DNA of 64,000 bases from Penicillus capitatus (taxonomy: Eukaryota > Plantae > Chlorophyta), in contig OZ287695.1 of the NCBI GenBank assembly GCA_965649825.1, forward strand, positions 2,097,288 to 2,161,287. The letters run 5' to 3'. Positions 1 to 41,900 of the stretch are shown in pieces (position 1 is the stretch's first letter; each line of letters starts with the position of its first letter). Position numbers and translations under genes: made by a program. The notes beneath the pieces are model-generated. The model searched no databases. It had not been told where the DNA came from and worked only from the letters and a program-made list of their open reading frames with translations.

Positions 1-1048
1 ATACGCTCGTGTTGTGGGATGATGCATTGTTCTCTGCCATCTCGACAAGCGTAGGTCACACTGCCCGTCAAGTTGACGTATCTGCCATCGTTTTCAATAG
101 TGCGATTCTCGAGACTGTCTAGTTGCCCGGTATGTGAGAGCGCAGTCTGTCGGGACAGTGATTGGATGTAGGAATGAGGCATCAGTTAGAGTCTCTTGCC
201 ATCTCCACTACATTGCATTTCTGCGAAGCAAACAACGTCTACAGGAATAATTCATCTGAACTCGTCTAAACCTCTTAGCTCCTCATCATTGCATACTCTT
301 GTCCAAACGAAAAGAGAAGAGCTTATCGATTTCGATACTCTATAACTGGGAGTGTCCATGTAAGGAGTGACAAACGGTCTTCCTTTTGTTCTGACTTCAA
401 ATCAAAGAAATGATTTCTGCGTCTGACGATCTCGTCTGACCTTCACCTCTTCTGGTATCAAATCTTGCGGACCACGATGTGTTTGCTTCTGGAAAGCAAA
501 TGCTCTCGCTTTCTCAACGACAGACAGTCGTTTCGACGTTCAGGAAGACAAACGTGGAGTAATAGAGTGGCACAGATGCATGAACAAGCAGATGCTTGTA
601 TTGACTAAAAGTAAAGTGTATTCGGCATATCGTCAAGATAACGGGGATGCAGAAACTTCTAAAGAGCCGTAGAGGTCATGAAAAGCCATATCCCTATGGC
701 AACAGCATGACGTGGTGGATCCAGATGTCGCCGCTTGATGGACGTGATTGATCTTCGTCAACAATTGCCTCGGACAATCCTGGAGTTACCAAGTCCTCGG
801 GAGTGAAAGCGACGAAGTCGACACTTCAGTCCACAGAACTTCGTCTCCTATTATAGATTCCAACGTTGTGGACGACCTGCTCCGCAACCTACTGGAGGAG
901 CTCCGCTTGTTCTCCTTGGCGAATTTGATTGAGACGTTCCTGGAAGGTTGGATACAACGGTGGGTAAGGGACAAGCGCGCGTAGGATGTCTCGCTCGGCG
1001 TCGTGGTTGGCTAGGGTGGAAAAATGGATGCGAGACAAACGACGCTAA

Positions 1049-1052
1049 ACAG
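1049..1052 (+). other. 4-bp target-site duplication ACAG (second copy 8025-8028)
   Basis: ACAG immediately precedes the 5' LTR and immediately follows the 3' LTR. Confidence 0.93.
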
Positions 1053-1359
1053 TGTTGTGTTAAGCCAACACGCCCCTAACAATGAGCTCATCTACTTACA
1101 CTTGTGTCGATCTCCAAGCGACAGGTCGTAGGTTCGCTACACCTTCCCATCCACAAATAGACCCGCGGCTCTACGTCACAGATTCCAAGTAGATTCCGGA
1201 ATCTTCGCAGAATATTCCTTCTTTGTTACTTAAAATAAAGTACCCTATAAAAGCTTTGTGAATGTACAGATCTTGTCTTTCGTTTGTAAGGCTTTACGTT
1301 TCAAAAGGTTTACGTGCGCCCACCACTCAAATTGTTCCCATCTAAAACCCTACGCGACA
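1053..1359 (+). repeat. 5' LTR
   Basis: TGTTGTGTTAAGCC...CCCTACGCGACA; no difference from 7718-8024 found by eye. Contains TATAAAA (1246-1252) and TGTAA (1285-1289, the chlorophyte poly(A) signal). Confidence 0.98.
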
Positions 1360-4300
1360 TGGTTTCGGAGCGAGTGCTCCCAATGCTGTTGTGGGTTCTA
1401 TGCTTTGCTACCGTCACGCACGGCGCATGGTTCGGCTGGAAGGATGGAATAGTAGAGTTACGGGATAAAACTCTAACAAGCATCCAGAACAACATCCGTA
1501 GTGGCGAAGACTGGATTGATGGATACATCGTTAACCTCGCCCACGACTTGAATACGAAGGAACCTGTCTTGTTTCAAGAAAAAGCGACGTCCACAATTCT
1601 ATACTGTACCACAGGGAAATGTGACTCGCTGACTAACGAAATCAGGGAGGAACCAGATCTGCATAAGGGAGGTTGCTTTCTGTACATCAAACCCCCGGGT
1701 GACTATTCGGTCGACGCCGGAATGCTGCAGAAAGAGATCGCAGAATTCGTCATCGGTTGTCCAAAGGGCATTATCTTTTACGATGCCACAGACGGAATAA
1801 CCATGGGCGAAGCCAACATGATGATCAAGCTTCTTAGCGAAGGTGCCAAGATCTACTGGGACGGACGACCTATATCGACAACCGACATCTCACTTTTTCT
1901 ACTCGTCCGAGGTGAACCCCATCCTGAGAATTGGGGCCAGAAGGAACTTCTGGACACGTCTAGACAGAGAGTGTACGATCTGACATACGGAGACCCTCGA
2001 AACGGCAAGAACGATTTCACCGTAATGTCGTCGGCGAGAGCTCTGCGCAGACGCTTCGGATACGCTATACCCGTAGCCGACCCCAAAGATCAAAGTGGAC
2101 TCTCTGCGGGACAGCGCCGATCAATCGAAAAGGAACAACTAGAAGAGAGATCTAAAGTGACGTACTCGGACGAAATTGATGAGATTGTCGATTCAGTCGA
2201 TACGTATCTAGAAGATGAATATGATGACATATATGTCGGAACCGAGCCTGGAGCATTAGATTTCGTGTACGCAATACCAGTCGAAGCGCAGCAAGATACG
2301 TACGAGGACACGGCAACCCCACAATCCGAGCCTGAAGTTGAGGCTACGCAGTCAGAGGAAGACCAAGGACCCGAACAGGAGCTTCCCCCAGAGAATGTCT
2401 TTGACATGCACGGATTAGGGGACGCTCTACCTCTCGACGCTAGAGAATCTTGGGCTGCGATCCCCGTTTGGATGAGAGACTTGGATATCACATGGCCGGA
2501 CTACGTAACGGAGATGATGACTAGCGCCGTCGTGGGCCTTACCACTCACGGAGTCATCAACTGGGTAGCAAACAGAGGGGTACTCTCCGTCTTCTACCCG
2601 ACTAATCTATTGACGACCGTCACAATTTCAGTCATCAACAACCTCCCATCTAGGCCAAAAATCGAGGGAGAACTGAAGGCCTTCAATGAGACATTGTACG
2701 ATTTGAACCAGTTTGAGAACATCTCGATAAGCGGTTCATCAACGAACTCTCAAGGCCAACAGGACTCCCAAGACACATGGGGCCCGAAAGGTTCAAATGA
2801 TGACTGGAAACGTCTCAACGACACACTGGACGAGATTAGGAAGACAATATATAGAATCAACGAACATACGGAAAATCTGAAGACGGCCCTCGACGAGTGC
2901 ATATGCGAGAGTCAAGTTACAGGTTGGGGAAACAGGCATGAGAATGAAACATTCCTCGACCGTTCCATAAAATGGCTAACCGGTGCCCGAGATAACGCGG
3001 TCACGTGGATGTTAGGCACGCTTTGGGATAAATTTGGACTCAGAGCAATTCGTAGTGCCCTGGCGACGGGGAACGGCTGGCAGTTGGTAGGCGCGGCTAT
3101 GCTTCTGTACAAGGTCGCTGTATGGATCTTGAATGTATTCAGGAACATCCGCAAGGTTGTGATGCGAATCGTAGCCATAACCCAGGGGATTTGCTGGCTA
3201 CTCAGAATCGTGTGGAATCTGATGCGGGGACATAAGGCTCAGGTGCAGCAACTGACTCAAGAACTGACCACCCAGCAGTCGTCACAGCAGCAGTCGCCAC
3301 CGCCATCTCAGCCGCCATTGGAACAGACACCACCGACGCCTACACAGCAGTCGCCACCGCCGTCATCCCAAGCACCGCCGCAGGAGTCATCGCCGTCATC
3401 CAGTCCTTCTCGTCCTGTCGCGCCATCTCAGTCGCCACCGCCACCGCAACATTCGGCACCACGACGGACAGACCAACAAAATACAGTGACGGAAATCCAC
3501 CCAGACCCGTCGCCGGAAGTCCGCCAAGACACTGAACAACGTGGCTTGATACAATCCTTGATGGAAAGTGTTCAAGCGATGCAAGATGGGCTTATGAGGC
3601 GCGCTGCAGAACTCGAGGACAGACTTGTCAATAGACAAGGGAGATTGGAAGAGGTTGTGGAGGCCAGCATACTTACTATCGGGCAACGAGTAGAAGCGGT
3701 TGAGGATCGGATGCGTATTCAGCAAGTCAGATGTGAGTCACCTCACCCTGAAACATCGCACGAGAACCAAGAAACAACCGAACGGAAAAAGAGTCGACAA
3801 ATACGTCAGGACTCAGACGAGCGTCGCCCTAGTGAAAGTGCAACTCCACACACTCCAAAAGGCCAGACTCCCAGTAGACGCGTCGAGAAGGATGGTCCCA
3901 CCATCAAGAACGTACACAAGCTGTTGCCAAAGCGTAAAGAGAATCTCTCACAGTTCACACGCAGAATGTCGAAGCTACTCGCATTGATAGATGACCCCGT
4001 CAAGTATGCTACGGCGACGGAGAGAATCTTTAATATTGCGAACGCACAAATCCAGTCGCGTCTGCGTGGACTACCATGGGGAGATGCAGGCAACTGGCCA
4101 CGTGTACAGAGGATCATCGACGAATGCTTGCAGGGAGGGCGGAATACACAAGGCAACGCTCCAAATAACGACAAGCAAGGCGTACAACAAGAGTACGGAC
4201 ACACCTGCGAGAGATGCAAGAAAAAAGGCCACTCCGGTAGAGACTGTCCTGTAATCGCGAAAGCCCCAAAGACGACAGAATCGGGGACTTTAGTACAAGC

Positions 4301-4715
4301 GAATCCGGTACAGCGCCAGAATTCTCAGAGGATGATACAGTATAATGTCCCACTCAACATGGAGAATATTGCCGGAAAAATCTCGTGCCTGTTGGACACC
4401 GGTGCGCAGACCAATATACTTCCGGCAAAGCTGGCAAGGAGACACAACTTGGTCCTCAGGTCGTCGAAGGTTAGAGATGTAACCAGCTTCAACAACCAGA
4501 CGACCAGGCCAAGTGGCGAGATCGCTTTGGTGTGTACCCTCGGGAAACAGAGCGCTGAGATTCCATTTGTCGTCTGTGATGGTGTCCAACGCCCGATTCT
4601 GGGAATGCAGGCCCTTCAAGCGTTCAAGTTGCAGCTCAACTGCGAGGAGGACGCAGTCTATGACGACAAAGGTAATAAAATACTCATCCACAACGTTTCT
4701 GTTTCAAAAAACTGA
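1359..4715 (+). CDS. gag: Env-like/Gag/protease polyprotein (signal peptide, AAA-like luminal domain, glycosylated segment, TM, Pro-rich region, CA-CTD-like, CCHC knuckle, aspartic protease)
   Basis: Uninterrupted frame. Signal-peptide-like MLLWVLCFATVTHG-AW; N-glycosylation sequons NET/NIS/NDT/NET; hydrophobic WQLVGAAMLLYKVAVWILNVF (about 3078-3140); CERCKKKGHSGRDC (4206-4247); LLDTGA (Asp at 4395). First ATG is 1359 (alternative 1383). Confidence 0.9.
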   Translation: MVSERVLPMLLWVLCFATVTHGAWFGWKDGIVELRDKTLTSIQNNIRSGEDWIDGYIVNLAHDLNTKEPVLFQEKATSTILYCTTGKCDSLTNEIREEPDLHKGGCFLYIKPPGDYSVDAGMLQKEIAEFVIGCPKGIIFYDATDGITMGEANMMIKLLSEGAKIYWDGRPISTTDISLFLLVRGEPHPENWGQKELLDTSRQRVYDLTYGDPRNGKNDFTVMSSARALRRRFGYAIPVADPKDQSGLSAGQRRSIEKEQLEERSKVTYSDEIDEIVDSVDTYLEDEYDDIYVGTEPGALDFVYAIPVEAQQDTYEDTATPQSEPEVEATQSEEDQGPEQELPPENVFDMHGLGDALPLDARESWAAIPVWMRDLDITWPDYVTEMMTSAVVGLTTHGVINWVANRGVLSVFYPTNLLTTVTISVINNLPSRPKIEGELKAFNETLYDLNQFENISISGSSTNSQGQQDSQDTWGPKGSNDDWKRLNDTLDEIRKTIYRINEHTENLKTALDECICESQVTGWGNRHENETFLDRSIKWLTGARDNAVTWMLGTLWDKFGLRAIRSALATGNGWQLVGAAMLLYKVAVWILNVFRNIRKVVMRIVAITQGICWLLRIVWNLMRGHKAQVQQLTQELTTQQSSQQQSPPPSQPPLEQTPPTPTQQSPPPSSQAPPQESSPSSSPSRPVAPSQSPPPPQHSAPRRTDQQNTVTEIHPDPSPEVRQDTEQRGLIQSLMESVQAMQDGLMRRAAELEDRLVNRQGRLEEVVEASILTIGQRVEAVEDRMRIQQVRCESPHPETSHENQETTERKKSRQIRQDSDERRPSESATPHTPKGQTPSRRVEKDGPTIKNVHKLLPKRKENLSQFTRRMSKLLALIDDPVKYATATERIFNIANAQIQSRLRGLPWGDAGNWPRVQRIIDECLQGGRNTQGNAPNNDKQGVQQEYGHTCERCKKKGHSGRDCPVIAKAPKTTESGTLVQANPVQRQNSQRMIQYNVPLNMENIAGKISCLLDTGAQTNILPAKLARRHNLVLRSSKVRDVTSFNNQTTRPSGEIALVCTLGKQSAEIPFVVCDGVQRPILGMQALQAFKLQLNCEEDAVYDDKGNKILIHNVSVSKN
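1360..1371 (+). promoter_or_regulatory. Primer-binding site, tRNA-iMet-like
   Basis: TGGTTTCGGAGC abuts the LTR end; it differs at two positions from the common plant iMet PBS TGGTATCAGAGC, one of them G:U-compatible. Confidence 0.75.
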
Positions 4716-4740
4716 GGGACCGGCCTGTTTTTCAGCAGGC
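4706..4740 (+). promoter_or_regulatory. -1 programmed ribosomal frameshift signal
   Basis: A_AAA_AAC heptamer (4706-4712) in correct phase right before the ORF1 TGA; GCCTGTT-TTTC-AGCAGGC stem-loop at 4723-4740; the -1 frame is stop-free from the heptamer into pol. Confidence 0.85.
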
Positions 4741-7708
4741 AGATGACGACTCGCAGACACCACAAATAAAACGCTTGGTATTAGTAAAGGCGAACTGGAA
4801 GGACGAGACACCTCAAGACAGACAGAAAGAATGGCCAACATCTTTAGCACTTCAAGTCACGGAATCCATCGATCGGGAGTTGTTCCCGTTCAAACAAAAC
4901 GGCTGGATCATCTTTATGGCAGGAAGAAGTTTTGTGCTGGGACCCTTTCGGAGCCGCCGCATCATTCTACCCTTCAAGTTTACCGAGACAACAGAATGGA
5001 GGGCATTTTTCGACTGTACTCATAACAAGAACATCTTCTGCAAAGTCAAGGTACACGCCAATGGTCAGATCAGCGTGGTAATCTTCAATCAATCCGATAC
5101 CCCACAACACGTCACCAGCAAGATGCGACTGTGCTGTGCTAAAGGAAACATTGATTCCATCACCGACGTCGATGGAACGGAGTACCCGCTGAAAGTGAAG
5201 ACCAAGCGTGTTAACAACATTAGCGTTCTTACACCAGTAGACAAGGATGCAACAGTGGCTCGGCTAAGAGAAGAATTTCCCCTGGTCTTTTCGGACACCA
5301 TTCGCCCGACGACCAGCAGGCTGTGGGATATCAGAGTACGCGACAGGGATCTTTGTTGGCAAGGCGAGCCTAAGCCATGCTGGAGGGAGAACTACGTCTC
5401 AGATCTCACCAACGAAGAGATCTCAAAAGAGATCGATTCTCTACACAAGGAGGGTGTTATACGACAGCTGTCTGTTGCGGAGGCAATACACGCTGTCGTA
5501 GCACCTTTAAACTTTATACGCAAACCGAATGGCAAGATCCGGCCCACCATTGACTTCCGCGACATCAACACGTACCTCGAAGGGACGCAAGGGGGGACCA
5601 TCATTCCGGTGTCCAACATCATTCAGAAGGTGGATCCCAAGTGGACCGTATACACCATCGTGGACATTGTTCACGGCTACGGCTCCATCCCCATCGACGA
5701 CGATATTTCGCTTTTCTTTGCCCTACATTGGAACGGCGTGACGTACGGCTTTCGGAGACTGCCGCAAGGCGTCAACGTCAGTCCGGAGCTTTTCAATAAC
5801 CGCATGACCCACATCCTGCAAGGGTTGGATGTGGTACGATACTTCGATGACATATTGATCGGCGGCGAAACTGAGGAGGAACTCCTCGACAAGACCAAGC
5901 TTTTATTGAAACGTTTCGACGAATATGGCCTGACAATCAACTGTCAAAAGTGCGACTGGTTTGAGACGTCAGTAAGCTTTCTGGGTACCGAACTCAGTGG
6001 TGGGACGCTAAACCCGTACCACAGGGCCCAGGCAATACTCCAGAAGCTGCCGACAATCACATCACGTCACGACGTTCAGAAGGCCATGGGTCTGTGCCAG
6101 CAACTGGCACAGTACTGTTACAAATACGACGCGATCGTCACGCAACTCAAGCCATTCCTGAAACGCGAACACAATGACTACACCAAAGCTGACGAGATCT
6201 ACAAGGACGCAGTTCAATCTCTGTGCATCAGTACGTACCGACTGACGTTGGAAAGAAGGGAGCCATTCCATCTGTACACGGATTGGTGTGGTAACCCACT
6301 CAACCAGTTCGGATACGTATTGCTTAACTCGACCTTGCAACCTGTTCTCTTTGGCTCCTTCACGACGAAACAGAGGGTCGGAAGTTTTCTGGGAGAACTG
6401 ATGGGGATAGTACGGGCCTTGAAGGAATGTTACTTTGTGATCAAGCAGACGGAGGTATTCGTTTACTCCGACAACATGGCTACAGTCAATTGGCTCAAGG
6501 AGCCGACATTCCTGCACAAGTTCAAGGACCTCCGGATCCAGAGACAGCATTGCTGGCTCCGGCACCACTTTTCCCATGATCGTCTCCACTTCTGTTTTGT
6601 AGAAGGGAAGGACAACGTGATAGCGGATCTTCTCAGCCGATGGAGAGACAACGCGCCTGTCGAATTTCACACCAAGAAGAAGCAACAGGGATATCAGGTA
6701 AACTCCATATCCCTTACTCCGGAAGAACGGACCGAGCTCATCAAAAAGGCTCATGCAGGCCACTTCGGGGTCAAGAAGACATTCCTGAACCTGCGGTCCG
6801 ACGGAACCCGCTGGACGAACGACTTCAATGACGTGCGAGATTACGTCAATAACTGCGAGACGTGCCAAATGTTTCGCAACCCACGGTCGGAAGTGGACTT
6901 GGGTATGATTGACAGTCCATCCCCGAACCACACACTGTGTCTAGACTTCATAGGACCGCTGAACCGTGGCAGCCACGGGTTTCGGTATATCGCTACCGGA
7001 ATCGATGCTTTCACTAAGTTCGGCGTGGGGCGTCTATGCAAGACCTGCTCAGCAGCACAGGCTATCAAGCTGGTACTCGAATGGGCACGAAAGTTTGGGG
7101 CTCCGCAAAGAATCCTGTGCGACAACGGAAGCGCCTTCATTGCTAGGAGCTTCGAAAGTACTTGCACACAGCACGGAATAGATATTTTACACACCCCAGC
7201 CTATTCCCACAAAAGTGCGGGCACTGTCGAAGCGTTCAACCGAAACCTCGTAAACCGACTTAGGCGGATATGGGCGGAAAGGAGAGGTGATTGGACGACA
7301 CATGTGAGCACGAGCGTACAAGAGATCAACCGAACGATCCATAGTACGACTCTGTTCTGTCCACAATACCTTCTAACTGGCACACAACGGGATGGCACGA
7401 TAACTAGTCCACAACAGCTGGACACCGACCGAGGACTAGCTTATCAACGAATAATTAAGGCACACCAGCAAAATAAGACAAGACACCACAAGAAAGTCAA
7501 GAACCGTCCCATGGAAGTGGGAGCAGAGGTCTCGTGGTACAACACGCAGCTGGCCGACCGCCTCGACTCCAAACTCTACTCCAAATGGGTCTATCCTTGT
7601 GTGGTGGTGAAGAAACATAGTGACCACCGTTGGGATATCCGTATGCCCAATGGTTCGACACTGCACAATGTCCATCGTGACTTCCTTCGGAGATTAGACA
7701 GAAGATAG
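4709..7708 (+). CDS. pol: Pol (-1 frame): dUTPase-like remnant, reverse transcriptase, RNase H, integrase
   Basis: RT: RKPNGKIRPTIDFRDIN, LPQG, YFDD. RNase H: LYTD, GELMG, YSDN, NVIADLLSR. IN: HAGHFG...CETC, LDFIGP, CDNGSAF, VEAFNR. No in-frame stops. Confidence 0.97.
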   Translation, partial: KLRDRPVFQQADDDSQTPQIKRLVLVKANWKDETPQDRQKEWPTSLALQVTESIDRELFPFKQNGWIIFMAGRSFVLGPFRSRRIILPFKFTETTEWRAFFDCTHNKNIFCKVKVHANGQISVVIFNQSDTPQHVTSKMRLCCAKGNIDSITDVDGTEYPLKVKTKRVNNISVLTPVDKDATVARLREEFPLVFSDTIRPTTSRLWDIRVRDRDLCWQGEPKPCWRENYVSDLTNEEISKEIDSLHKEGVIRQLSVAEAIHAVVAPLNFIRKPNGKIRPTIDFRDINTYLEGTQGGTIIPVSNIIQKVDPKWTVYTIVDIVHGYGSIPIDDDISLFFALHWNGVTYGFRRLPQGVNVSPELFNNRMTHILQGLDVVRYFDDILIGGETEEELLDKTKLLLKRFDEYGLTINCQKCDWFETSVSFLGTELSGGTLNPYHRAQAILQKLPTITSRHDVQKAMGLCQQLAQYCYKYDAIVTQLKPFLKREHNDYTKADEIYKDAVQSLCISTYRLTLERREPFHLYTDWCGNPLNQFGYVLLNSTLQPVLFGSFTTKQRVGSFLGELMGIVRALKECYFVIKQTEVFVYSDNMATVNWLKEPTFLHKFKDLRIQRQHCWLRHHFSHDRLHFCFVEGKDNVIADLLSRWRDNAPVEFHTKKKQQGYQVNSISLTPEERTELIKKAHAGHFGVKKTFLNLRSDGTRWTNDFNDVRDYVNNCETCQMFRNPRSEVDLGMIDSPSPNHTLCLDFIGPLNRGSHGFRYIATGIDAFTKFGVGRLCKTCSAAQAIKLVLEWARKFGAPQRILCDNGSAFIARSFESTCTQHGIDILHTPAYSHKSAGTVEAFNRNLVNRLRRIWAERRGDWTTHVSTSVQEINRTIHSTTLFCPQYLLTGTQRDGTITSPQQLDTDRGLAYQRIIKAHQQNKTRHHKKVKNRPMEVGAEVSWYNTQLADRLDSKLYSKWVYPCVVVKKHSDHRWDIRMPNGSTLHNVHRDFLRRLDRR

Positions 7709-7713
7709 GTGGG
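7690..7713 (+). promoter_or_regulatory. Polypurine tract (imperfect)
   Basis: GAGATTAGACAGAAGATAGGTGGG then CCCA directly before the 3' LTR; overlaps the pol stop codon; TGGGCCCA palindrome at 7710-7717. Confidence 0.6.
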
Positions 7714-7717
7714 CCCA

Positions 7718-8024
7718 TGTTGTGTTAAGCCAACACGCCCCTAACAATGAGCTCATCTACTTACACTTGTGTCGATCTCCAAGCGACAGGTCGTAGGTTC
7801 GCTACACCTTCCCATCCACAAATAGACCCGCGGCTCTACGTCACAGATTCCAAGTAGATTCCGGAATCTTCGCAGAATATTCCTTCTTTGTTACTTAAAA
7901 TAAAGTACCCTATAAAAGCTTTGTGAATGTACAGATCTTGTCTTTCGTTTGTAAGGCTTTACGTTTCAAAAGGTTTACGTGCGCCCACCACTCAAATTGT
8001 TCCCATCTAAAACCCTACGCGACA
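7718..8024 (+). repeat. 3' LTR
   Basis: Direct copy of 1053-1359, followed by the TSD copy ACAG at 8025-8028. Confidence 0.98.
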
Positions 8025-8713
8025 ACAGAGGTAAGTGGAGAAAAAACTAGTGAGTCCTCGACCTTTTTCCAGTCTTTGTGGCAGGGCTTTCTAGGCAGAT
8101 GAGCCACTACATTGCCAGAGCCAGAGAAGAGGGCCCTTTAGAAGTCAGTGCGCCCATGCGACAAGACAACCAGCGCCCCATGAAAACACGACACCCTTTC
8201 TCAACAAGACAGTCACATCGACAAAGGAAATCTTGGCGACACTAGACTCGGACACAATATGTGTGTGATTCGTTGAGTTGGAGATCTCGGGTACAGATTG
8301 GATTCGACGTAAGCGTCAGGAAACGACGATTCCGTATCACGACTAACAGGGTATGGATTTTTTGCTGGATGCTTCACTCCGTTATCTCGAGCTTCTGACG
8401 AAACTAACAAACAGCACACTAACATTGATGGGATTGTTAAAAAAACTGGATTAAGTCTGCATTCGACTGATTGTGTGAGTGACGGGTATGCGATAACGAT
8501 TGCGGCCCCGCGGACTGGACAGGGTGTCCGCTTCCTGACGTGACAGGGGTCCGCGGGCGCCGAGGGTACTTAAGTGACGTGTACGCCTCACCATGTAGCT
8601 TTTGCATTGGCTCGTGGCTGTCTCCTCCGTTCGGCTCTGCGCGTTCGCGCGACTGCGGCGCGTCTGTCGACACGCGATTCCCGACAGTGAGCCTTCATTA
8701 AAAGCGAAGGTAA

Positions 8714-11701: not shown

Positions 11702-14700
11702 ATGTCTCGAAGAGGTAAACTTCGTGTTTGTCGAGGTTGTAGAGTTTTTCTCTGTTAAGGAACATCCTCTCGCCATCTGTGCCATCTCTTTTTGAGAACT
11801 GGAACATGCAAGTTTGGCGCGTGTAAATTCTCGCACGAGACTTCGGATCCGGAAGAAGTGGCGAGAGCAGAAAAAGATGCCAACGATTATAGGCTCTTTC
11901 ACAAAAAAGAGATTTGCAAGCTCTTCAGCAGAACAGGAAAATGCATTAACGGAAACAACTGTCGCTTCCTACACGCCAGCGAGGCTGAAGTCCTGAGCGG
12001 ATCCGTCAACGACGAAACGGATCATCTCGACGTCTTCACGTAGGTTCACAATGCTCGATCTTTCACCGCCAAAACCCCTTTCCGTAGTATACTCGTTGAC
12101 AAAAGGATGGAGAATGTTTCGGCGAGGCAAGTCGAAATGTTTATTCAATACATGGAGCGCTGTCTCAGAAACAACGATGGAACCAGAAAATGCTCGGTTC
12201 TCGAGACACTCGGTAGTGCGACCGGCGGGGAGATTCTGTGCAACCTGTTCGGCAGACCGAAGCGATTTGTGCTTCGACAAGCCACAACGAATGGACAAGT
12301 CAGCAGCTTACTTAATTCTAATTAGCAAAGAATTGTTGCACCAGGTGTCTTTTCTTCACACCTTTGTTCCCTTCTTGAAGCTGGTCACATCTCCTTTGAT
12401 TTTGGCAGCAGCGTTGCAGAATTATGTGAACACATTTCTGCAGGCCCTGGGGCAGTCTTTTCAGTGGGCAGAGCTACATCCAGTTCTTGAAGAACTCCTT
12501 CCTGTCGAAGAACCAAGAAGCGGCTTGGGATCTCTTCTTTCCTTCCTGAGCTTCTCATCAAACTCATCGACCCAGCAAAGCTCTGGCTCAGAAATTGACA
12601 ATTGGATGGACATCGTATATCCATTTGTGTTCTTCTTGCTGGAACTCCTTCGAAGATTTGATGACCGCTTTCTCCGAGAGATTGCGGAACTCCGTCCGTA
12701 TATCGAGAGAATGATGCGTCGTGTGCCCATCGATTTTTGTCATCCTGACCGACAACACAGACAGTTTGCACAACACATCATTGATTTTTCAAAGCAAGCA
12801 TTCTACCGTTCGAATCTCTTGTTGATCTAGCATTTGAATTAGTCTCTTCGAACAAAAAACTGGGAGGGGTGAGATGAGTGACGAGGTAACAAGGCAACTC
12901 GAAAGGATACACATCCCGCAAAAAACTCAGAAAGCACAAGACACTCTCTATGCAGAACCGCCAGGTAAGTCCTCTGCACATGTAAAGTAAACAAGAACCA
13001 TTAGCAGGTATACTTCGTCCTCAAGGACCAAGGCACGACAACGACCACAGCGACATCACAAGAATTCAGATTGCCCCGACCGAAGATGAAGTCCTTTCCG
13101 ATATTCCACCATATCTTCCTCCAAATAGGCATGTCGTTCTTTTTGGAAAAGGAATGTCATACTATCACAGGGCTGGATCTGTCGTACATATGCCTCCTGG
13201 TAGTGTGGCAGCTCACCGGGTCCTGCACTTCCGCTTACTGCGTCATAACTTGGTGTCAGACATCCAGACCGCGATTCGCACTTTCATGGAAAATGGAGGA
13301 ATCAAAACTCTCAAAACTCTGGTGACGCTAAGCTGCCAATTGAATGTTGCTTTCTTGACAGCATTTGGAAAGCAGGACCGTCAAAGAAAGACAGTTGCCG
13401 AAGGCTTTGAGACCAGGGATGTTGTGATTGACACATACAGACATGCAAAGGTCGTTTCGATGGATGCCAACCTACATTCTGGAATCTATTATAAGGTGCA
13501 TTTAGTGCTTCAATAATATTTGGATCGTTTTTTGTTACCTTAACAGATTGAATGCGCTGAACCAGATTTTATCAAAAAATCGTCAAAACATCAGAAGTTG
13601 GTTTTCTGGGAGAGAACACAACGATTGTCTCATGGTTCGTTGGTCTGCTTGTGGTGGCTTTCAGACAATTCACCTCGTCCCAATATCGTCTTTGGGGTTA
13701 TCGTAGAGCATAATCCAGATAACCTAGCAGACTCTCGTCCATGTTTCGGAATCAAGTAAGTCATTCATTGCTCTTGATTTTGTAAGAAGACCTCTTCAGG
13801 TCGATCCCGGAGCCTTACAATGACAAACTCATTTCTCTCTTAATGAAAGAGAAAGAAGACCTCCAGGTATCGGAAGTGGTGTTGCTGCAAGCAGGTCCCA
13901 GCTTCTTCGCATTCGATCCGATCTTGAAAGCACTAAAGACAGCTCCTATCCCTCTCGCTCATATCATTGCACAACCTCCACTAATGGTGAATACATAGAA
14001 AAACAGATTATTGACAAATCTTGTATGTCTAACAGCCGAACACAGACAGACAGATAGTAACCTTACCTGAATACGCTGAGGTCGGTGGAACTTTTAATCT
14101 CGAATTCCTTGTCCAGGGCGGACGTAATTCCCCGTCGTGGTATATATATCAGTTGAACTTTTTGTTGACATACGTGAACGGTGTTGCAGGATGGCAAAGT
14201 TCAATGCGGCGGCTCCTGATCATTTTCCAATGGAAGAAGTCCTTAGACAGACCACCCTTGACAAATCTCAGGCAGAAGCATTGAAAGCTGCGCTCACACA
14301 GGAGGTTGCTTTGATCCAGGGCCCTCCAGGAACAGGTGCGATTGCTTGTTTGTTTTACATATACCGAGATCAAACATTTGATACCAACAGGAAAGACCTA
14401 CGTCGGGATACAGATCGTTCGTGCACTCCTGACCTTTGAAGCCACTCACCAAATTCCTGTCAATCTCCCTGCGACAGTTACAAAGCCAGGAGATTCTGTC
14501 AGTCCGATCCTATGTGTCTGTTACACAAATCATGCTCTGGATCAGTTCCTCTGTGGTTTGCTTATGGTCGGAATTGACAACATCGTTCGACTTGGAGGAG
14601 GCAGTCGGTGCGAGGAAATCGAACCATATCATCTCAAGAACAGACCAAAGCGAGGAACTGGAGCCAGAGGCTATGAGCTGTTGCGGAAAAAACTGCCAGA

Positions 14701-17700
14701 ACTAGAGGAGAGAATACGCAACATCGATTCCTATCTCAGGGAATCCAACCAGAGGTGCATAACGTTTGTTCTTTTAATGCCTCTGATATTTGTAGCCATT
14801 TAGCTTGCTCAAATGGCATCAGATCAAGGATGTCATTTTGGAACACTGTCCGCAGTTTCTACATTTTCTTGCAAGTGGCAGTTCCACTAGCGATGGCGAT
14901 TATGAATCGGAAACTCTGCCGCTCGCATGGACATCCTGGTGTCGTATGTATTCGAACTATCGAAAGCACGAAAGGCCGAATGCCGCGTTCATTCAAAATC
15001 GTCCCGTGGAGGTATTGCTGCAAATGGACGATTTTCATGAGATCTCTCCTGGCGAACACAAGACATTGTATGACTATTGGACTCAAGAAGCAAGAAAGGC
15101 AGCTATTGGTGGGGTCCAAAGACTAATGGGAGAATACGGACGATGCATAGAGGAATTTGCAGAATTAAGAAGCTCGTCTGTTCTGGACTGTTTGAGAACA
15201 GCATCCGTTGTGGGGACGACAACGACATATGTGGCAATACATCAAGAACTCCTGGCTGGACTCCGACCCAAGATTGTGATTCTCGAAGAGGCAGCTGAGG
15301 TTCTGGAAGCCCATGTCCTGACATCACTTTCCTTGAGCACTCAGCAATTGATTATGATCGGAGATCACGAGCAACTTCGCCCGAGATTGGACAACTTCTT
15401 ACTCCAAAAGCAATCGGAGTTAGGATTCAATCTCGATGTCTCCCTGTTCGAAAGGCTGATCACCGAGAACAATGTCAACCACGTCACGCTCCGAAGTCAG
15501 CGAAGAATGCGTCCGTCATTCTCGAGGTCCTTATGCAACTAATTTTGCCTCCGGATGATGTTGTCCTCTTAGGCTCCTCCGATCGACGATATACCCTGAC
15601 CTTCAGGATCATGTCTCTGTGACAGAATATCCGTCAGCCGTTCCTGGGATGGAAAAGACGTTGTTCTTTTTCGATCATGACCATGAAGAGGGTGGTATGG
15701 CAGATGACAGGTCCAAGAGCAACGTCTTCGAAGCTCAATTTGCCATCCACCTCGCCATCCACTTGTTAAAGCAGGGCTGCTTCGAACCAGGTTTGTTCCT
15801 GCATCACGGTTCGGTGATCGAATGTATCCTTAGACGACATTGCCATCGTGACTCCGTATCTGGGGCAGCTTCTGCAGCTCCGAAAGCACAGTAATGAGTT
15901 TTCTCTTCGAATGCGAATTGACGGCAAAGATGAGTTCTATCTTGGCGAACTTCTTGCCGATTACGTAGAAACTGGTGATTCATCCATTCTACTGTATCAG
16001 TATCGCAAGTCAGCTTCTTGTTCTTTCAGATAATCCAGAAAATCCTGGAGAAGACGTTCAAGAAGATCATGTCCATCGAGTTCCGAACATGATGAATGAG
16101 TCAAAACAGGCAAAGCGTTCCGAGCAGTCGTACGTGCGTCTGGCAACTGTCGACAACTTTCAAGTGAACTGCCATCCATCATTGCACTGAACAAAGTTAG
16201 TTCGGATCTCAGGGAGAGGAGGCAAGAATCGTCATACTGTCCCTCGTCAGGAATCAGAAAGAAGGACACATCGGGTTCATCGGAATCAAGAACAGGATCA
16301 GCGTTATGCTCTCGAGAGCAAAGGAAGGGATGTACATTCTTGGAAACTGTCAGTCACTCGAAGCCTACAGCAAGAACACCGTATGGAGGGATATCTTGCA
16401 TCTGATGAGAAACGAGGGTTGTGTTGGAACCGAGTTGAAGGTAGTTTGGCAGGCTCATCAATAACGGATCCTATTGTTCTCTTGTTTGAGTTGCAATGCC
16501 AAAACCATCCGGAGAACATAACGAAGGTTTCACACTGGAAGGACTTCGATCTTCTAGTCGCGGATGGAGGCTGCCGGGAACCTTGCGGCCAGCAGTTACC
16601 GTGTGGCCATATCTGCGGACGGTAATATCAGCTAAGGACGTGGGACCTTTCTTGATTGCCTGTCTTCCTGACAGGCGGTGCCATATGACGAACAGGGACC
16701 ACAAAGAAAACGATTGTGCTGTCCCCGTCAGTATCGAGTTTCCCTGTGGCCATGTCAAGACCGATGTTCCGTGCCGAGAGTACGTCTCTTATCCAGCTGC
16801 CTCGAATGACAGCGTGTCTCCGGCAGAGTGACCAATGCCAAAGAATTTCTCTGTGATGAGTACGTTGAAGTCAGAGTGGTGGGATGCCCCCATGGTCACA
16901 GATATCGTGTGAAATCCTCTCAGGCAGAGTGTTTCTCTGAGAACCCAAAAAACTGCACTGAGAGAGTCACTGTTCGTATGCCGATGTGTGGACACGAGAT
17001 CAGAGTGCCCTGTCACCAAGAGCCTACAGTCCTGGATAATCCAAGTAGATGTGCCGAAAGATGCCGCCGATTGATCGAAGGTTGCGGTCACAAGTGTAAA
17101 AGAAAATGCGGAGAGTGTCTTGGCCGAACGCTGGAGAAGAATCCTGATTTCGTACTGTCAGCGTCAAATGCTCAGTTGATTGATCACGGAGAGTGCAAAT
17201 CTCGTTGTGGCAAGACACTTCTGTGCGGCCACAAATGCGAAGCAAAGTGTCACCCAGGTGAGATGTCTGATCTCTAACCATTCTCAATACCATATGCAGA
17301 CCGTGAAGTCTGTTGGCCTTGTCAACAAGAATGCTCTATCGTCTGCGAGCATCGAAAACATGGCTGTCAGAAGAACTGCTCAGAGCCGTGTGTTTCCTGT
17401 GCCGAACCCTGTTCATGGAAGTGCGAGCATCAAGGAGAATGCGATCTGCCATGTGGGACACCATGCAACCGATTGCCATGCGACCGGCGTTGCGCCAAGA
17501 CACTTACATGTGGCTGTCGCTGTCCTTCTCTTTGCGGAGAGGAATGCCCCTCAACTGATTTTTGTCATGTGCATGGGCGCCCTAGAATCAAAAAAATGGT
17601 CCGTCATCCTTCTCATATGGACACTTTTAAGTTCCTCTGCGTTGCAGGAGGTGGATATGATCATATTCCGTAAGTATGGCGACCTCACGGATGAGGAACT

Positions 17701-27262: not shown

Positions 27263-30200
27263 TCACGGCCGCCATTTCTGCGAAACCTTTGAGCTCTCGT
27301 CTCGCCGCAGAAACTCCGCGAGTCGTGGCGAATACTTCCCACTCTTCATTCTCTGTCTGGCCACCACATCATGGGCAGCCGTTTTCGAAGACAGATGCTT
27401 GCTGTGCTTTTCCCGGTTCTCCTTCACCACGCCACTCGCCCAATCGCCATACCGATTCAGTAATGTACTGTTCTCGTGGCGCAGCGTATCTGCCTTCTGT
27501 CTCATCACAGCATAAGCATCTTTGGCCGATTGGGCTTCGGAAACGGCACGTTCGATCGATAGATGTGAAGCAGAGAGATCCGATTCGAGGTGTTTGTTGC
27601 GCTCGACACTGCGCTCGAGATTCTTTTGGATGCATTTGCGGGAGGCCTCTTCGGCTTCCATAGCAGCGACGAGATCCTCGATCATTTTGCTTTTCTCTCC
27701 TAGTTTTAGCTTCAACTCAGCAACGGCGTTTTCTTTCTCTTGGAGATCTCGCCGTCTCTGCGTCTCATTCTCTCTCTTTTCTTCCATCGTCGACTGGAGT
27801 GTCATTTCTTTCTCGGCCACGAGGGCAGACAGTCGCGAGATCTCTTTCTTTATCACTGTGATTTTGTCCTTTGCCTCCACGAGCTGCTCCTGAGCACGTG
27901 CCGCTTCATCGTGACTCCGTTCTTTCTCAGCCGTCGACTCCGAGATCTAACACCGACAGAAACTGTCTCTATGCAAGCTCGAGATCCAAAGCACTTGGCG
28001 TTTGAATTTTTCTCTCTCTGTGTTATGCGATTCTTGCGTCGCCTTGAGCTGACCCGTGAGCGAACGTAATGTCTCGCTGAACTGATGGATCTGAGCATCC
28101 CTCTCGGCGATCTCCTCCGACGATCTCTCAAGAACACTCGTCTTTTCATCCTCACTGACCTCCAACTGCATCGCACCGCTTCAAATGATCATCTCTGAGC
28201 CACTCTATTTATCACCTTTTTTCTCAGATGTTTGATTTCTTCCCTGAGATGCACACATTGTAAGGCCTCTCGCTGCAAATCCTCTTCCATCTCCGTCATC
28301 CTCTCGCCATAAGATGCCGCGTTCTGTTTCAGGCGTTGTTCTTGGAAGGAAAGCTGATCCTACAGCAGACAACGCACGCGTGAGCTCGTTTGGCACATCG
28401 CGGTCATAGCTCAGTGGGAGAGCGTCAGACTGAAGATCTGAAGGCCCCGTGATCGATCCACGGTGACCGCATCCTTTTCGTCACGCACTTTTGTCCTTTT
28501 CAATTCCTCCTGCCCGTCTTCAACTTCTCGCGTCTGCTGTTTGCAACGCCCCTCCACCAAACTCAGTTCGTTCTTGAGATTCGACCATTTGGCATGGAGA
28601 GACTCCTTCTCTCGCAGCGTCTCCTCTTGCACGTCACTCAGAGCAGCGACCTCCGTCTGAACCTCCTTCAATGATTTCTTGAGGTTACGGATCTCAGCCA
28701 TATATGCTGTCTCCTTCTTCTAAACACAAACCGTAGAGCTGCACATCTATGGATCGACAGTGCAGATCTCGAAGTTATACTTTACTGTCATGTTTTATGC
28801 CTTCGAGCTTTGTCTTGGTCTCGGCAGACCATTCCGATTCCTTCCGCTTGTGATCGTGAACCGACATCTCGTGCTTCTCTTTGAGTCGGACGTGTTGTTT
28901 CAGCAAATCTCGATGCGCTTCTCTCTCGTTCTTTAAAGACTGTTTGAGATCCTTCGTCTCCTCTTCGAGATGGATCTTCTCTTTTTGCAGAGATGCTGTG
29001 AGAGATTGAGAGGCTTCGACTTCACTGGCCAATCGCTTGGCCTCACTCTTTTCCCCAGAAATGATGTGACATTCTTTTACGTTGGATGCTATTGTACCTG
29101 ATGTTTGGCAACGAGGAGACGTTCTTGGCTCAGAAAATCGTGGACGGTGTCGATCTCTTCCTCCATGACGTTTCTTCGCTCTTCGCTCGATTCCAGTTCC
29201 CGTTGAAGACGGCAGCATCGTGCCTCACTCTCTTTGCTTCGTTCTAAACAGTGTGATGCAGCTTCATTTTAAGTAAGAGGCATCTTCTCACACCTTTTTC
29301 CTGAGCTTCTCCGGACTGTCGTGCCTGGCACTCTTTTGTTAATTGTTGTGCTTTGAGTGTCAGTGCATTGACAGTGCCTTCCAAATACGTGCTTCGATTG
29401 CTGAGCTGCTCACACTCTTTCTTGATTTCGTGAAGCCTGAATCAAACTCTCTTCACAGAAGGTGATGCAAATTGGCGCCGACTTCTGTGTGCGTTCCTTA
29501 AGCATCGCGCCGCTTTCTGCCAGCTGTTCCGTGAGATGTCGACATGTGACATGCTGCCGCTGCATCTCCTCTGCTTGTCGCGTTGCCTGTTCTCTGATCT
29601 GATCACATTCTTTTTCGACCAAGACCAAACGATCGGTCTTCGCTTTATCATCTGCCTCGAGCCTCAGCCTCAGACAATGCTCATCGCGAAGCCTGTAACG
29701 ATATGCACATCTTTCTCTGCGACGGCAAGAATCCGGTTTGCAGCTGTAGACCTTCTTTGCAGTTCCTTGAGACGGTCATCGTGTGTCTTCAGTGCCGCTC
29801 TCAGCGCCGTCTGTCCCTTCTCCATTCAAACACGCTGACCGTTCGTTTGCGATGATCACCTCCTCTTCTGCTTTTGCAGAGAGATCGTTTGTCAACGTCT
29901 GCAGATCCTGTTCAAACCGTGCTCTTTCCTGCATCACACAGAGCCTCTCTCACGATGAGCGTCCAAATGCCTGCAATGGTCGAGAGACCGTTTTTTGATC
30001 CGTTTTCAGTCGAAGGAGCTCTTTTGCCAATGCCTCGTTCGCCGTTACCAGATCCTGCATCATTAGAGATCCCATCTCCTGTATGCCGCACACCAGAGCC
30101 TACTGAAATCGTATTGTCTTTGTAAGCATTCCATCGATTTTGCAGGTCCTTATCAAAGGCTCGCTGTCCTCCTTTTAACAGATAGTTTTTTGGATGGAAG

Positions 30201-36051: not shown

Positions 36052-36592
36052 TTAGGGCTTCTTCACAACGACGATCTTTTTCTTCGGGACCGGGATGGGT
36101 TCTGGCTTCTTCACGACCACCACTTTCTTCGGAACCGGGTTGGGTTCTGGCTTCTTCACGACCACCACTTTCTTCGGGTCCGGGATGGGTTCTGGCTTCT
36201 TCACGACGACGACTTTGGGCTTCGGGTCCGGGATGACTTTTGGCTTCACGACGACGACTTTGGGCTTCGGGTCCGGGATGACTTTTGGCTTCACGACCAC
36301 CGGTGGTTTACCGCCATGCATTAATTGGCGCTGCGGTGTACCCGCTATCGCCTCCCCAATCCCAACCATATCATCTTCCGTTGCGGAACTGTCCGGCAAA
36401 ACGCGTGACTCTGGGGCGGTTACACAACGCATCGTTAACGGAGAAATGTATTCCGTAGAAAGTTACCTGCGCAAAGAGCAAAGCAACAAAGTAGAACCTG
36501 CGACACAGTGACGCGAGTCAGAAAACAGGTTGTCGGAGAGAACGATAAGCAGGATGTACGCAGAAGAGGGTTCCGGAACGTGCAGGACGCAT
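36052..36592 (-). CDS. Secreted Pro/Lys/Val-rich repeat protein (putative cell-wall protein)
   Basis: Hand-spliced MRPARSGTLFC|VLLCCFALCA|ESRVLP... signal peptide, then five 15-16 aa repeats of the KPKVIPDPKPKVVVV / KKPEPIPDPKKVVVV type. Confidence 0.7.
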
Positions 36593-38926: not shown

Positions 38927-41900
38927 TCACTGTGTCTTGCATTTCAGTTTATCTGAAAAATCGAACGCTTCTCTCCACAGAGCCTCCACTGCATTCTCCA
39001 CCGTAGCGTTGTCCAAGAATGGCTCCGTCGAAGGCACGATCCGAACTTCACTGACATCTCGGATATTCGAGTATCGACCCTGCGCCAGACGACGCGTATA
39101 CTGCTTGGCCTGTCGAATGACCAGTTGGTAAGGAACGCCAAATCGCATCTTGTGCTTTGGATATTTGAATATCGTGTAATGCTCCATGTAATCGACATCT
39201 AGATTCTCACTCTTTATGTACAGCTCATTATTCTCCCGAATGCCAATGGCATCGATAAAATCTTTTGCCAGTGCATGATCCTCGAGCTTCGTCACCTCAC
39301 TCACCTGCCAATCAAAATAAAATATCTCCGGGGCGGATGAAGATAGCAAACCTGTGTTTTGAGCATGAATCGAATATCGGATTCGCGTCCCTCCACTTCG
39401 TCATGGTGACAGACACATTGTCGTTTGACATCGCTGACGATCCAGCGAATCGGCGCCGTTTCGATGCCGACAAATTTCAGATCGGCATCGTAGCGCGCCG
39501 TCACGACACCCGTTCCTGTCTGCGCCACCACTTTGACGCCTTCTTCCTTATCGCCTTTGTACTGGTCTTCGGGAATATCTGTTAACGAGTTTATCAATCT
39601 CTGTTTCAGAAAGTCGCGTTCTTCATCATCGAAGAAGACAGAAGCGACAAACGACGTGGAAATGAATCCATCATTGGCACGTTCTCCTCTAGGCACACGG
39701 CGAAAGTGACCTGAATCGAACATCGGATCCAAGAAACGTGATTTTCTTCGTTCCAGAGCCTTGAGCAAATCTTCGGTGGTCAGATGCGTGGCATCTTCCA
39801 CAAAAGACTGGGGAGGACTCACAACGTAGCTTCGGCCAAACTTGACTTGAATCTCGCATGGACCGTTGACTTCTGGCGAGTACTGTCTCTGAAAGTGGGC
39901 CAGTTGACGTCTGAAATGCTGTCGGAACTGATCAAAGTTGTCGGTATTGGTAGGATCCACCGCCGAAGTGGCAGGACGATCACGCAAGCGAACGACATAG
40001 AGCCTCTTGTAATCATGCTGTGGATACTTGTAGCCTAAGTAAGGCTCGAGGCGAATGGAGGCATGGGTACCAACTGCCGTTTCCACTAAAAGATTGTGCG
40101 CACCTGTCACATCTTTTGTGCCCCTAGATACACGAAACACCGTCACCTCTTCACCTCTTCAGCCCTATCTTACCGCACGCGCAGTGTCCGGCCCGTTTTT
40201 TGTTGTTCATCAGCCTGTGCATTGAGCATCTCGATCTGTTTCTCTAACAGATAGAGCTCTGCCTCCGTTCCGACGCCTTTGACGATCTTTCCCGGATTCA
40301 AAGCGCTCATTCGAGACTGGACATCGACCCATGCTCCAGATCTCTGATGCAGCATCCTGGTGAGGCCATCCTCATCGCCAACCACGAGACGCGACGCCTC
40401 GAGTTTGATAAAGAAAAGACGTTCGATGGGAACTTTGCTGAGCAAGACGGATGCGTTGACGTGGAGAGACAGGCGATGGGAGGCTTTCTCCATTTCGGCC
40501 GAGAGCAGAGTCAGCATATCAGTCCTTGCTTCATCATTCCATCTCTCCACCTTTAAGGCCTGTAAAAATGCCACAGACATGATCACGTCCCTAATTAGCT
40601 GCTGTGGCAGACTTGTGAGAGTTCTGGATGGAGATCGGCTGGAATCTGAGCCGTCCCCTGTTTCATGAAGGTACACAGGAGACGTCCAACTCGACCAGAC
40701 TCTCCTTCCCACGGCTGATCGCTGATCTCGTCGTTTCGATTGGCTGTTAGGTTTTGATGCAAGCTCTTCCATTCGTTGTCCGTGCCAAAGCAGTCGTTGT
40801 GCAGCGGATCTTCAAAAAATCTCTTGGCTGCTTCCAAGAACTGCCGTGGAGGGATTGGATGCAATTCGCCAGCCTTGAGACAATGATCGATGAACATCAG
40901 TGGCACCAAGTAGTCTGGCAGGAAGAAAACACGACCGCCCACCAATCCTGTCGCCATCATCCATGTGAACAGGATTCTGAGCGCAGGGAAGAGCCACTGG
41001 TGCTTGAAGAAGTACTTCTTGATCACAATCCACTTAACGACTTCGGCTGGATTGGCAGAGAGCCGAGCCTTTGTCTTGGGCAGCCTCTTGAAGACACGAA
41101 CTCTGAGGTGACATTGCTCAGTGTTTAGGTTTTGTGCCGCGAAAAGAGAAGAGCATTCGGATTTCACCCTGTCCAACCGCGTCAACTGATCCTCTTTGCT
41201 CAGGGCGATGTTTTCTGAATCATACACCTGCCGTCTCTTTTTCATGACCAGAATGCACACTTCTCCTCTCTGATCATCGAACAGCAGGAGATGACTGGCA
41301 CCAAAAAGCACGCAGAGAGCAACGCGCTGACAGGTCTCTCCCAGAAAACGTGCCAACATGATATGATGTTCGTAGGCTTTATACAGTTTGCTACACAGCC
41401 ACACATGACGTTCCTCAGGAGAGAGAAAGACAGACGACTTACTCAATCGTCCCGTTGAAAATTTCTTTCACGCTGTCCGAGATTTCGGAGTAAATTGAAC
41501 GCTGCGGTCTCTGTTTGGATGCTGCGTCGCTATAGATCTCGGCCAGAAGATCCTTCAAGATCCAAGGAAAGCTCAAAAAATGTTGCATCTCGTTGCCTAT
41601 GTGCACGGATCGCATATCTCTTCGGCAAAAGGCATACGACTTACCCACAGAATACTGATCTCCGTAACAAGAGGCATAGGCAGCATAGTACCAAGCAGAA
41701 GCTTTCTTCTTCTCCTCGACTCTGCCATCTGCCTCATCCAGTCGCGAGTCGGTGAAAAAGATCGCTTTGTATTTCGTCTTGATCTTCTCCAACATAAACT
41801 TCACGTTCTTCCTCACGTCATCCAGTTCGCTTTCGAGTCTCGGGTGGTACGTCGAGATGACACCCGACCACATCTCAGCCTCCGTCTCAATGCCGTACAT

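Follow-up and report, generated by a model that had tools for sequence, protein, structure and literature searches.

How the particles of a retrotransposon cross a closed nuclear envelope to reach chromatin is an open question. The nuclear envelope stays closed in mitosis in many chlorophytes. A stretch of 64,000 nucleotides from the green alga Penicillus capitatus (GenBank assembly GCA_965649825.1, contig OZ287695.1, positions 2,097,288 to 2,161,287 of the forward strand; hereafter the window) carries an intact Ty3/Gypsy long terminal repeat (LTR) retrotransposon at 1053-8024. The first open reading frame of this element (ORF1) places a domain related to AAA+ ATPases ahead of Gag, and the predicted structure of this domain is closest to those of LAP1 and LULL1, the torsin activators of animals. 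The locus raises the questions of where the element obtained such a domain and what the domain does there, and it offers a direct single-residue test of an envelope-based route to chromatin.

The LAP1-like domain of ORF1

ORF1 starts with a predicted signal segment, which is directly followed by the domain. All features below are on the plus strand.

1359..4715, ORF1, 1118 residues: signal segment, LAP1-like domain, acidic linker, helical region, membrane segment, Gag, zinc knuckle, protease
1359..1424, residues 1-22, hydropathy-based prediction of a signal peptide or signal anchor
1425..2090, predicted LAP1/LULL1-like nucleotide-free AAA+ domain, residues 23-243 (221 residues)
1605..1622, Cys83-x4-Cys88 where a Walker A loop would stand, with a putative disulfide
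1770..1787, degenerate Walker B, with Ala143 in place of the catalytic Glu
1839..1883, pre-sensor-1 beta-hairpin of the ClpB-D2/Skd3 type, from the alignments and from model strands 142-145 and 148-151
2052..2054, Arg232 at the arginine-finger position, aligned with E. coli ClpB R756

An AlphaFold2 model of the domain was built from a 25-row alignment (predicted local distance difference test, pLDDT, 80.8; predicted template modelling score, pTM, 0.83). Its core consists of five strands with a hairpin ahead of strand 4, and the lid is missing. A five-stranded alpha/beta core with a pre-sensor-1 hairpin characterizes the HCLR clade, and TorsinA is among the clade members that possess this hairpin (Demircioglu et al., PMC4999309). 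The best structural matches of the domain are LAP1 (TOR1AIP1) and LULL1 (TOR1AIP2) (PDB 4TVS and 5J1S chain B; PF05609). LULL1 ranks first among 48,161 representative chains (VIA-align Z 13.8, root-mean-square deviation 4.3, 203 residues aligned; next entry 11.4), in a comparison that gives one row per entry and thereby hides TorsinA. TorsinA is visible among 989 re-aligned Foldseek hits, which are topped by LAP1 (Z 14.0, root-mean-square deviation 4.1, 197 residues aligned), with LULL1 at 13.8, ClpB-D2/Skd3 at 12.1 and TorsinA at 11.8. LAP1 and LULL1 also align the most residues (197-203) among the top structural rows. By Foldseek template modelling score LULL1 is the highest listed (0.59/0.57), and the Foldseek E-value order has Skd3/ClpC first, TorsinA sixth and LULL1 eleventh. 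A LAP1/LULL1-type fold is predicted with very high confidence.

The sequence points elsewhere within the AAA+ proteins. As a single sequence, the domain matches no Pfam family at E 0.1, and in the PDB it matches only Skd3, at a non-significant E of 1.8. A search among full-length proteins returned 3 relatives, every one an ORF1. When 1.84 billion representatives were searched with a profile, 14 of them matched at E <=0.001: eight of element type, of which several are fragments classed without sight of their genomic context, five of host type and one spurious, the plant Rx_N repeat protein P0009, which was dropped. Two further searches contributed 11 and 7 rows, which overlap in part. The resulting profiles match the second AAA domains of Skd3 and ClpB/ClpC/Hsp104 in the PDB (best E 1.9e-6, 1.1e-7 and 1.9e-7), the combined profile of element and algal rows reaching E 1.1e-7 against those of Skd3/ClpB. 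This match, together with the ranks of LULL1 and LAP1 in the structural comparisons, places the fold beyond chance. Neither the domain nor the profiles gave a match to PF05609 or to the LAP1 chains in these searches, and judged by sequence the family is nearer to ClpB-D2/Skd3 than to LAP1. The profiles match ClpB/Skd3 rather than LAP1, and the disulfide of LAP1 is not kept; LAP1-like therefore refers here to the predicted fold and design of the domain in a Ty3/Gypsy element, and not to orthology with LAP1 or membership in its family.

The motifs were assigned by alignment with E. coli ClpB. Walker A residues K611/T612 of ClpB lie opposite a six-column gap in the ORF1 domain, and Walker B residues D677/E678 align with D142/A143. 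Sensor 1 is also lost. The domain therefore lacks the set of features that marks active AAA+ ATPases such as Torsin and ClpB-D2, namely Walker A, the DE pair of Walker B, sensor 1 and the C-terminal lid. The finger column is Arg in 22 of the 23 algal and element rows that have a residue there, which places a conserved Arg before the last strand; the equivalence of Arg232 with R756 is that of a sequence alignment. Both Cys83 and Cys88 are present in every one of the 24 algal and element rows, many of which are close kin.

LAP1 has been defined by the absence of Walker A, a broken Walker B, the absence of a C-terminal domain, the finger Arg563 and a disulfide that ties helix alpha1 to the C terminus (Sosa et al., PMC4358337). 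The element domain resembles LAP1 and LULL1 in its AAA+-like fold without Walker A, with a degenerate Walker B and without a lid, in its finger Arg and in the hydrophobic segment directly before the domain. It differs from them in sequence (10-11% identity, no sequence-profile match), in the Cys pair at the former P-loop, in its position N-terminal to a Gag polyprotein and in its non-animal host. Unlike LAP1, in whose published topology no such element is listed, it keeps the pre-sensor-1 hairpin. With the second AAA domains of ClpB and Hsp104, with Skd3 (human CLPB) and with the Torsins, all of the HCLR clade, it shares this hairpin, the Arg equivalent to R756 and Z values of 11-12; TorsinA itself is reported to be without a finger Arg (PMC4358337). 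These proteins bind ATP and have a lid, whereas in the element domain Walker A, the catalytic Glu and sensor 1 are gone, as is the lid. Cys88 sits at the start of alpha1 and its likely partner is the invariant Cys83. The pair at the former P-loop is likely a substitute for the LAP1 disulfide and would fit an oxidising lumen.

A first-pass annotation of the window had read 1500-2075, which corresponds to residues 48-239, by eye as a torsin/LAP1-like lumenal domain without Walker A, with an Arg at the finger position and behind a signal peptide. The motifs it quoted are all in frame in ORF1, the gap opposite K611/T612, Arg232 and the hydropathy of residues 1-22 bear out these three points, and the structure prediction returned an AAA+ alpha/beta fold, on which the proposal hung. 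The likeness to LAP1 holds for predicted fold and layout and does not extend to the sequence profiles, which match ClpB/Skd3 and not LAP1, LULL1 or TorsinA.

Green-algal relatives and conservation of the domain

The nearest relatives outside elements are uncharacterised green-algal proteins, and the named host-type rows are hypothetical proteins of Chlorella ohadii KAI7844878.1, C. sorokiniana PRW61089.1, C. vulgaris KAI3432348.1 and Nannochloris KAL4527200.1. The full-length host-type proteins P0013, P0034 and P0035, of Chlorella and Nannochloris, start with a SAP-like region (Pfam E 6e-4 to 0.017, under the cut-off), after which come a basic low-complexity tail, one strong membrane span and the domain in one or two copies; P0019 shares the SAP-like end, but its predicted sequence shows no clear span. 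The layout of the three is that predicted for a type II protein like LAP1, with the domain lumenal. One end of LAP1 binds chromatin and the opposite end torsin (PMC7773337). The element domain shares with these SAP-transmembrane (SAP-TM) proteins the domain family (element-only against host-only profile: HH probability 98.7, E 2.6e-16), the Cys pair and an RRR-I/F motif. They are about 17-25% identical to the element domain and, unlike the element, carry an N-terminal SAP-like and basic region and one or two domain copies and have no element parts. A host-only hidden Markov model scores 56.3 bits on ORF1 (44.9 without P0010); the best of 200 shuffles scores 0.0 and the reversed domain -2.9. 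Since the host rows were first retrieved with the element profile, these scores speak for consistency and do not amount to an independent search. In the Atlas feature comparison, which gives leads only, the element domain falls near two Chlorophyta clusters and Torsin clusters (0.79-0.83), and the host protein P0035 near the same Chlorophyta clusters and a cluster in which 23% of members have LAP1_C (0.76).

The host-type gene P0010 is flanked by a DUF493 gene and a fumarase gene; its contig, 2.5 kb long and intron-poor, contains no element parts. In trees with and without the ClpB outgroup, the P0010 protein joins the element rows at 99/99 on a long branch, and it shares Cys134 with them. An upstream in-frame Met of P0010 (L001 989-1951) adds a short Arg-rich tail before the hydrophobic segment, and no SAP domain is present; the protein terminates in Cys, which may be compared with the Cys adjacent to the C terminus of LAP1. 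In Chlorella, P0013, P0034 and P0036 have two tandem LAP1-like domains, the second of which lacks the two leading Arg of the RRR motif and keeps the Arg at the finger position.

The distribution of the family is wide among hosts and narrow among elements, from which we infer that the domain was captured from an uncharacterised green-algal gene, a direction of transfer that is very likely. The donor is likely to be a nuclear-envelope gene of the green-algal SAP-TM family rather than animal LAP1. The earlier suggestion of captured host machinery thus gains a candidate donor family, whose kinship to animal LAP1 is not visible by sequence. Tor1aip2 has been described as restricted to metazoa by reciprocal BLAST (PMC7889174), and domains of the LAP1/LULL1 type are treated as animal-specific (PMC4358337). 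Neither a retroelement with such a domain nor an algal LAP1-like family was found in the literature, as judged mostly by titles and the starts of abstracts and with subscription papers largely uncovered. A LAP1-type fold and layout in Chlorella and its relatives would be new and would provide tractable organisms in which to address the original role of the torsin-activator system.

The presence of a SAP-like, DNA-binding end in the host protein and its absence from the element would suit a decoy: a domain in the secretory pathway that would draw away the partner of the host LAP1-like protein and so loosen, to the advantage of the element, the tethering of chromatin to the envelope or the surveillance of the envelope. 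In human cells, an excess of the LAP1 domain disturbs the contacts between envelope and chromatin, an effect that depends on torsin (PMC7773337). However, a decoy need not remain fused to Gag, and in 5 of 5 full-length ORF1s the domain is fused; such a role is improbable.

Alignment with the relative P0005 gives 59% identity and a single gap column in 220 over the domain and 60% identity over the middle region of ORF1, whereas the linkers are 33-45% identical and two of the three have 22-38 gap columns. Residues 1-22 are 91% identical in 3 of 3 full-length relatives, and the distant subfamily P0008 retains signal segment and domain at 34% identity. In the mosaic P0020, a domain of P0005 type is joined to a Gag of P0003/P0004 type, which means that both domain variants are carried on full-length frames. 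By these alignments, the domain is open and nearly indel-free across subfamilies. This pattern bears on whether the domain is merely a passenger, that is, a functionless host exon acquired with its signal peptide. Such an origin would suit the truncated and internally deleted copies P0007, P0008 and P0022, but the frame has stayed open and nearly indel-free at 59% identity and recognisable at 34% in another subfamily, the Cys pair and the Arg are retained, and both variants, including that of the mosaic, stand on full-length ORF1s. A passenger is accordingly very improbable. In P0008/P0021, an in-frame internal deletion fuses integrase directly to the signal segment and the larger part of the LAP1-like domain (515 residues, at least 3 contigs).

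Predicted membrane topology and candidate partners

Three features of ORF1, all on the plus strand, separate the domain from Gag.

2091..2390, acidic, indel-rich linker, 45% identical to P0005 with 38 gap columns
2391..3083, conserved helical region with four N-glycosylation sequons and a heptad-like helix
3084..3224, marginal membrane span (576-594), then a basic loop and an amphipathic helix (600-622)

Hydropathy of the spans was scored on a rough ad hoc scale. In 5 of 5 full-length ORF1s, 4-6 sequons precede the span 576-594, three of them in matching columns, and Lys/Arg are commoner after the span than before it (4 vs 1). These features make the helical region likely to be lumenal. In the simplest topology, the domain and the middle region would be lumenal and Gag, protease and the frameshifted Pol cytosolic. 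Such a type I arrangement, from which the protease of the element would later free Gag, is probable.

A signal segment, sequons, a moderately hydrophobic stretch at 382-426, the heptad-like helix, a CxC motif and a Trp-rich stretch before the membrane segment are also what an envelope protein would offer. The N-terminal 620 residues could on this account be a surface glycoprotein fused to Gag, with the LAP1-like domain as attachment or budding module, the helical region as a possible fusion part, and particles budding into the endoplasmic reticulum (ER) or out of the cell. Both this account and the roles it gives to the parts are quite improbable. ORF1 region 345-630 has no Pfam family (best E 0.07) and its fold model is unusable (pLDDT 38, 5 rows), no relative was found among viral contigs with A2 or P0010 as query, the host is presumably a walled alga, and relatives are limited to one assembly-type source.

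Our preferred reading, which we hold tentatively and at somewhat less than even probability, is that a membrane-anchored Gag presents the lumenal arginine-finger domain to a host torsin-type ATPase. The signal segment would direct the translating RNA to the ER, as the signal recognition particle (SRP) does for Ty1, and Gag would assemble while tethered to the ER or the nuclear envelope. The lumenal domain would lend Arg232 to the host ATPase, which would remodel the membrane that the particles use for assembly or for passage to the nucleus, and the element protease would then release the capsid. Yeast Ty1 nucleates its particles at the ER through SRP, by co-translational targeting of Gag and its RNA (PMC3945221), and a similar targeting is predicted here. 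Unlike Ty1 Gag, which is translocated and then returned to the cytoplasm (PMC3945221), the element protein is predicted to keep a lumenal ectodomain and a membrane anchor. Torsins have been linked to the budding of large particles at the envelope (PMC4701712) and aid herpesvirus nuclear egress (PMC7140721), and they are known beyond animals, in kinetoplastids (PMC10903960). A host torsin as the partner of the domain has nearly an even chance, and passage through or budding at the nuclear envelope, the purpose that the first-pass annotation had suggested, is doubtful as the function of the arrangement. A broader scenario is rather unlikely: green algae would own both an inner-nuclear-membrane protein of LAP1 type and a torsin, and the element would have captured the activator domain for torsin-driven budding of its particles through the nuclear envelope. 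If true, a retrotransposon would use a herpes-like route across the envelope, and the torsin-activator system would be older than animals.

Several observations weigh against the torsin reading. As for the fold, the lead of LAP1 and LULL1 in Z is about 2 units at identities of 10-11% and may partly reflect the shorter chain of LAP1, LAP1, LULL1 and TorsinA are unmatched by any sequence profile at E 10, and an Atlas structure search with the host protein P0035 leads to ClpB-type rows. As for the residues, Arg232 belongs to a run of three Arg whose conservation could be structural, and the alpha1-to-C-terminus disulfide of LAP1 is absent, the element having no Cys after the last strand. As for the origin, monophyly of the host rows is not rejected (p-value of the approximately unbiased test, p-AU, 0.46), nor is that of the element rows (p-AU 0.50; 17 of 25 rows used in each case); because the host rows may form one clade, the direction of transfer rests on distribution and not on rooting. 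As for the topology, 3-4 sequons per protein also follow the span, and the spans of ORF1 are marginal and amphipathic; should both of them insert, Gag would lie in the lumen, which is incompatible with this reading. As for the partner, torsins are stated to be absent from plants and single-celled organisms (Sosa et al., PMC4358337), and no torsin of the host or of any green alga turned up, no torsin-directed sequence search having been made.

An alternative is a torsin-independent scaffold or address label, in which the lumenal domain self-associates or pairs with the host SAP-TM paralogue, and so clusters membrane-bound Gag and directs particle assembly to the nuclear envelope and its chromatin tether. 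No partner ATPase turned up, none having been searched for; the family is nearer by sequence to ClpB-D2, whose finger Arg serves its own ring; the tandem domain copies of the Chlorella proteins hint at domain-domain contact; and Ty1 particles nucleate at the ER through SRP (PMC3945221). However, a pair of nucleotide-free domains would have no use for a finger Arg, and this residue is nonetheless conserved in 22 of 23 rows; moreover, LAP1 and LULL1 are described as being without the lid that stable rings require (PMC4999309). We regard such a scaffold as unlikely.

The rest of the element and its surroundings

The remaining parts of the element are as follows, on the plus strand apart from the target-site duplications, for which no strand applies.

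1049..1052, left target-site duplication ACAG
1053..1359, 5' LTR, 307 bp, TG...CA, same sequence as the 3' LTR
1360..1371, primer-binding-site-like stretch, overlapping the start of ORF1
3549..4247, Gag part: coiled region, conserved capsid-like stretch, CCHC zinc knuckle at 4206-4247
4356..4637, aspartic protease at the end of ORF1 (PF13975, E 4.6e-7)
4679..7708, ORF2 (pol): N-terminal region without assigned family, reverse transcriptase (RT), RNase H, integrase
4706..4712, slippery heptamer A-AAA-AAC just 5' of the ORF1 stop, from which the -1 frame enters ORF2
5516-5992, RT, within ORF2
6719-7207, integrase, within ORF2
7700..7717, purine-rich tract preceding the 3' LTR
7718..8024, 3' LTR, 307 bp
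8025..8028, right target-site duplication ACAG

The order of protease, RT, RNase H and integrase is the Ty3/Gypsy arrangement by Pfam, in which the RNase H matches lie under the Pfam cut-off, and the closest PDB match of ORF2 is Ty3 Gag-Pol (E 5.8e-21). No chromodomain was matched by Pfam in ORF2. The capsid-like stretch matches no Pfam family, and its identity as capsid is suggested by its position and by 85% identity to P0005. Downstream of the slippery heptamer, the predicted RNA hairpin is no better than those of shuffles (z 0.73). About 160 residues between frameshift and RT (window 4760-5240) have no family match; a dUTPase-like reading of the ORF2 N-terminus at about 4840-5200, made by eye from its beta-rich character, finds support neither in Pfam nor in the PDB. 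Only two long open reading frames lie between the LTRs, so that a separate env frame of the kind found in errantivirus-like Metaviridae is absent.

Fixed extra domains are rare in LTR elements, the examples being env, the chromodomain and AlkB (PMC9289625). Like other Ty3/Gypsy elements (Metaviridae) with extra domains, the present one has LTRs, a -1 frameshift site, the order protease-RT-RNase H-integrase and a fixed extra domain. Unlike env-bearing errantiviruses, chromoviruses and the AlkB-bearing elements of orchids (PMC9289625), it has an AAA+-derived domain with a predicted signal segment and span fused ahead of Gag, where those elements have a separate env frame, a chromodomain or an enzyme.

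The ATG of ORF1 takes its A from the end of the LTR and its TG from the start of the primer-binding-site-like stretch, which is hence also coding (1359-1371). The stretch presumably resembles an initiator-Met primer site and differs from it at third codon positions. The start MVSER is also found in the distant subfamilies P0008, P0011 and P0017.

The two LTRs (307 bp each, ends TG...CA) are 100% identical, which indicates a recent insertion, and the element is likely young. Three of four public sequencing runs give 295-313 contigs each, spread over all 30 bins of the element at varied identities, and the family is therefore multi-copy. A single contig in run X2 connects the left and right flanks across the element. 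The left flank (window 900-1050) shows high summed depth and shared variants in the sequencing runs, and the element may be inserted inside another repeat.

Several further features of the window lie downstream of the element. Tandem CCCH zinc fingers precede AAA_11/AAA_12 helicase pieces at 11759-15542, an arrangement that we take to be a ZNFX1/Upf1-like layout. A tRNA-Phe(GAA) gene lies at 28400-28471, and five 45-48-bp repeats on the minus strand at 36061-36309 code for a Pro/Lys/Val-rich extensin-like stretch. At 39301-48176 on the minus strand, an RNA-dependent RNA polymerase (PF05183) and DEAD/helicase-C pieces form one same-strand run, possibly one gene or a tight RNA-silencing cluster. 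In keeping with a green-algal host, the peroxiredoxin encoded at 48871-50184 carries a leader resembling a transit peptide, and the top PDB matches of the protein are chloroplast BAS1 and 6j13, the latter presumably from Chlamydomonas.

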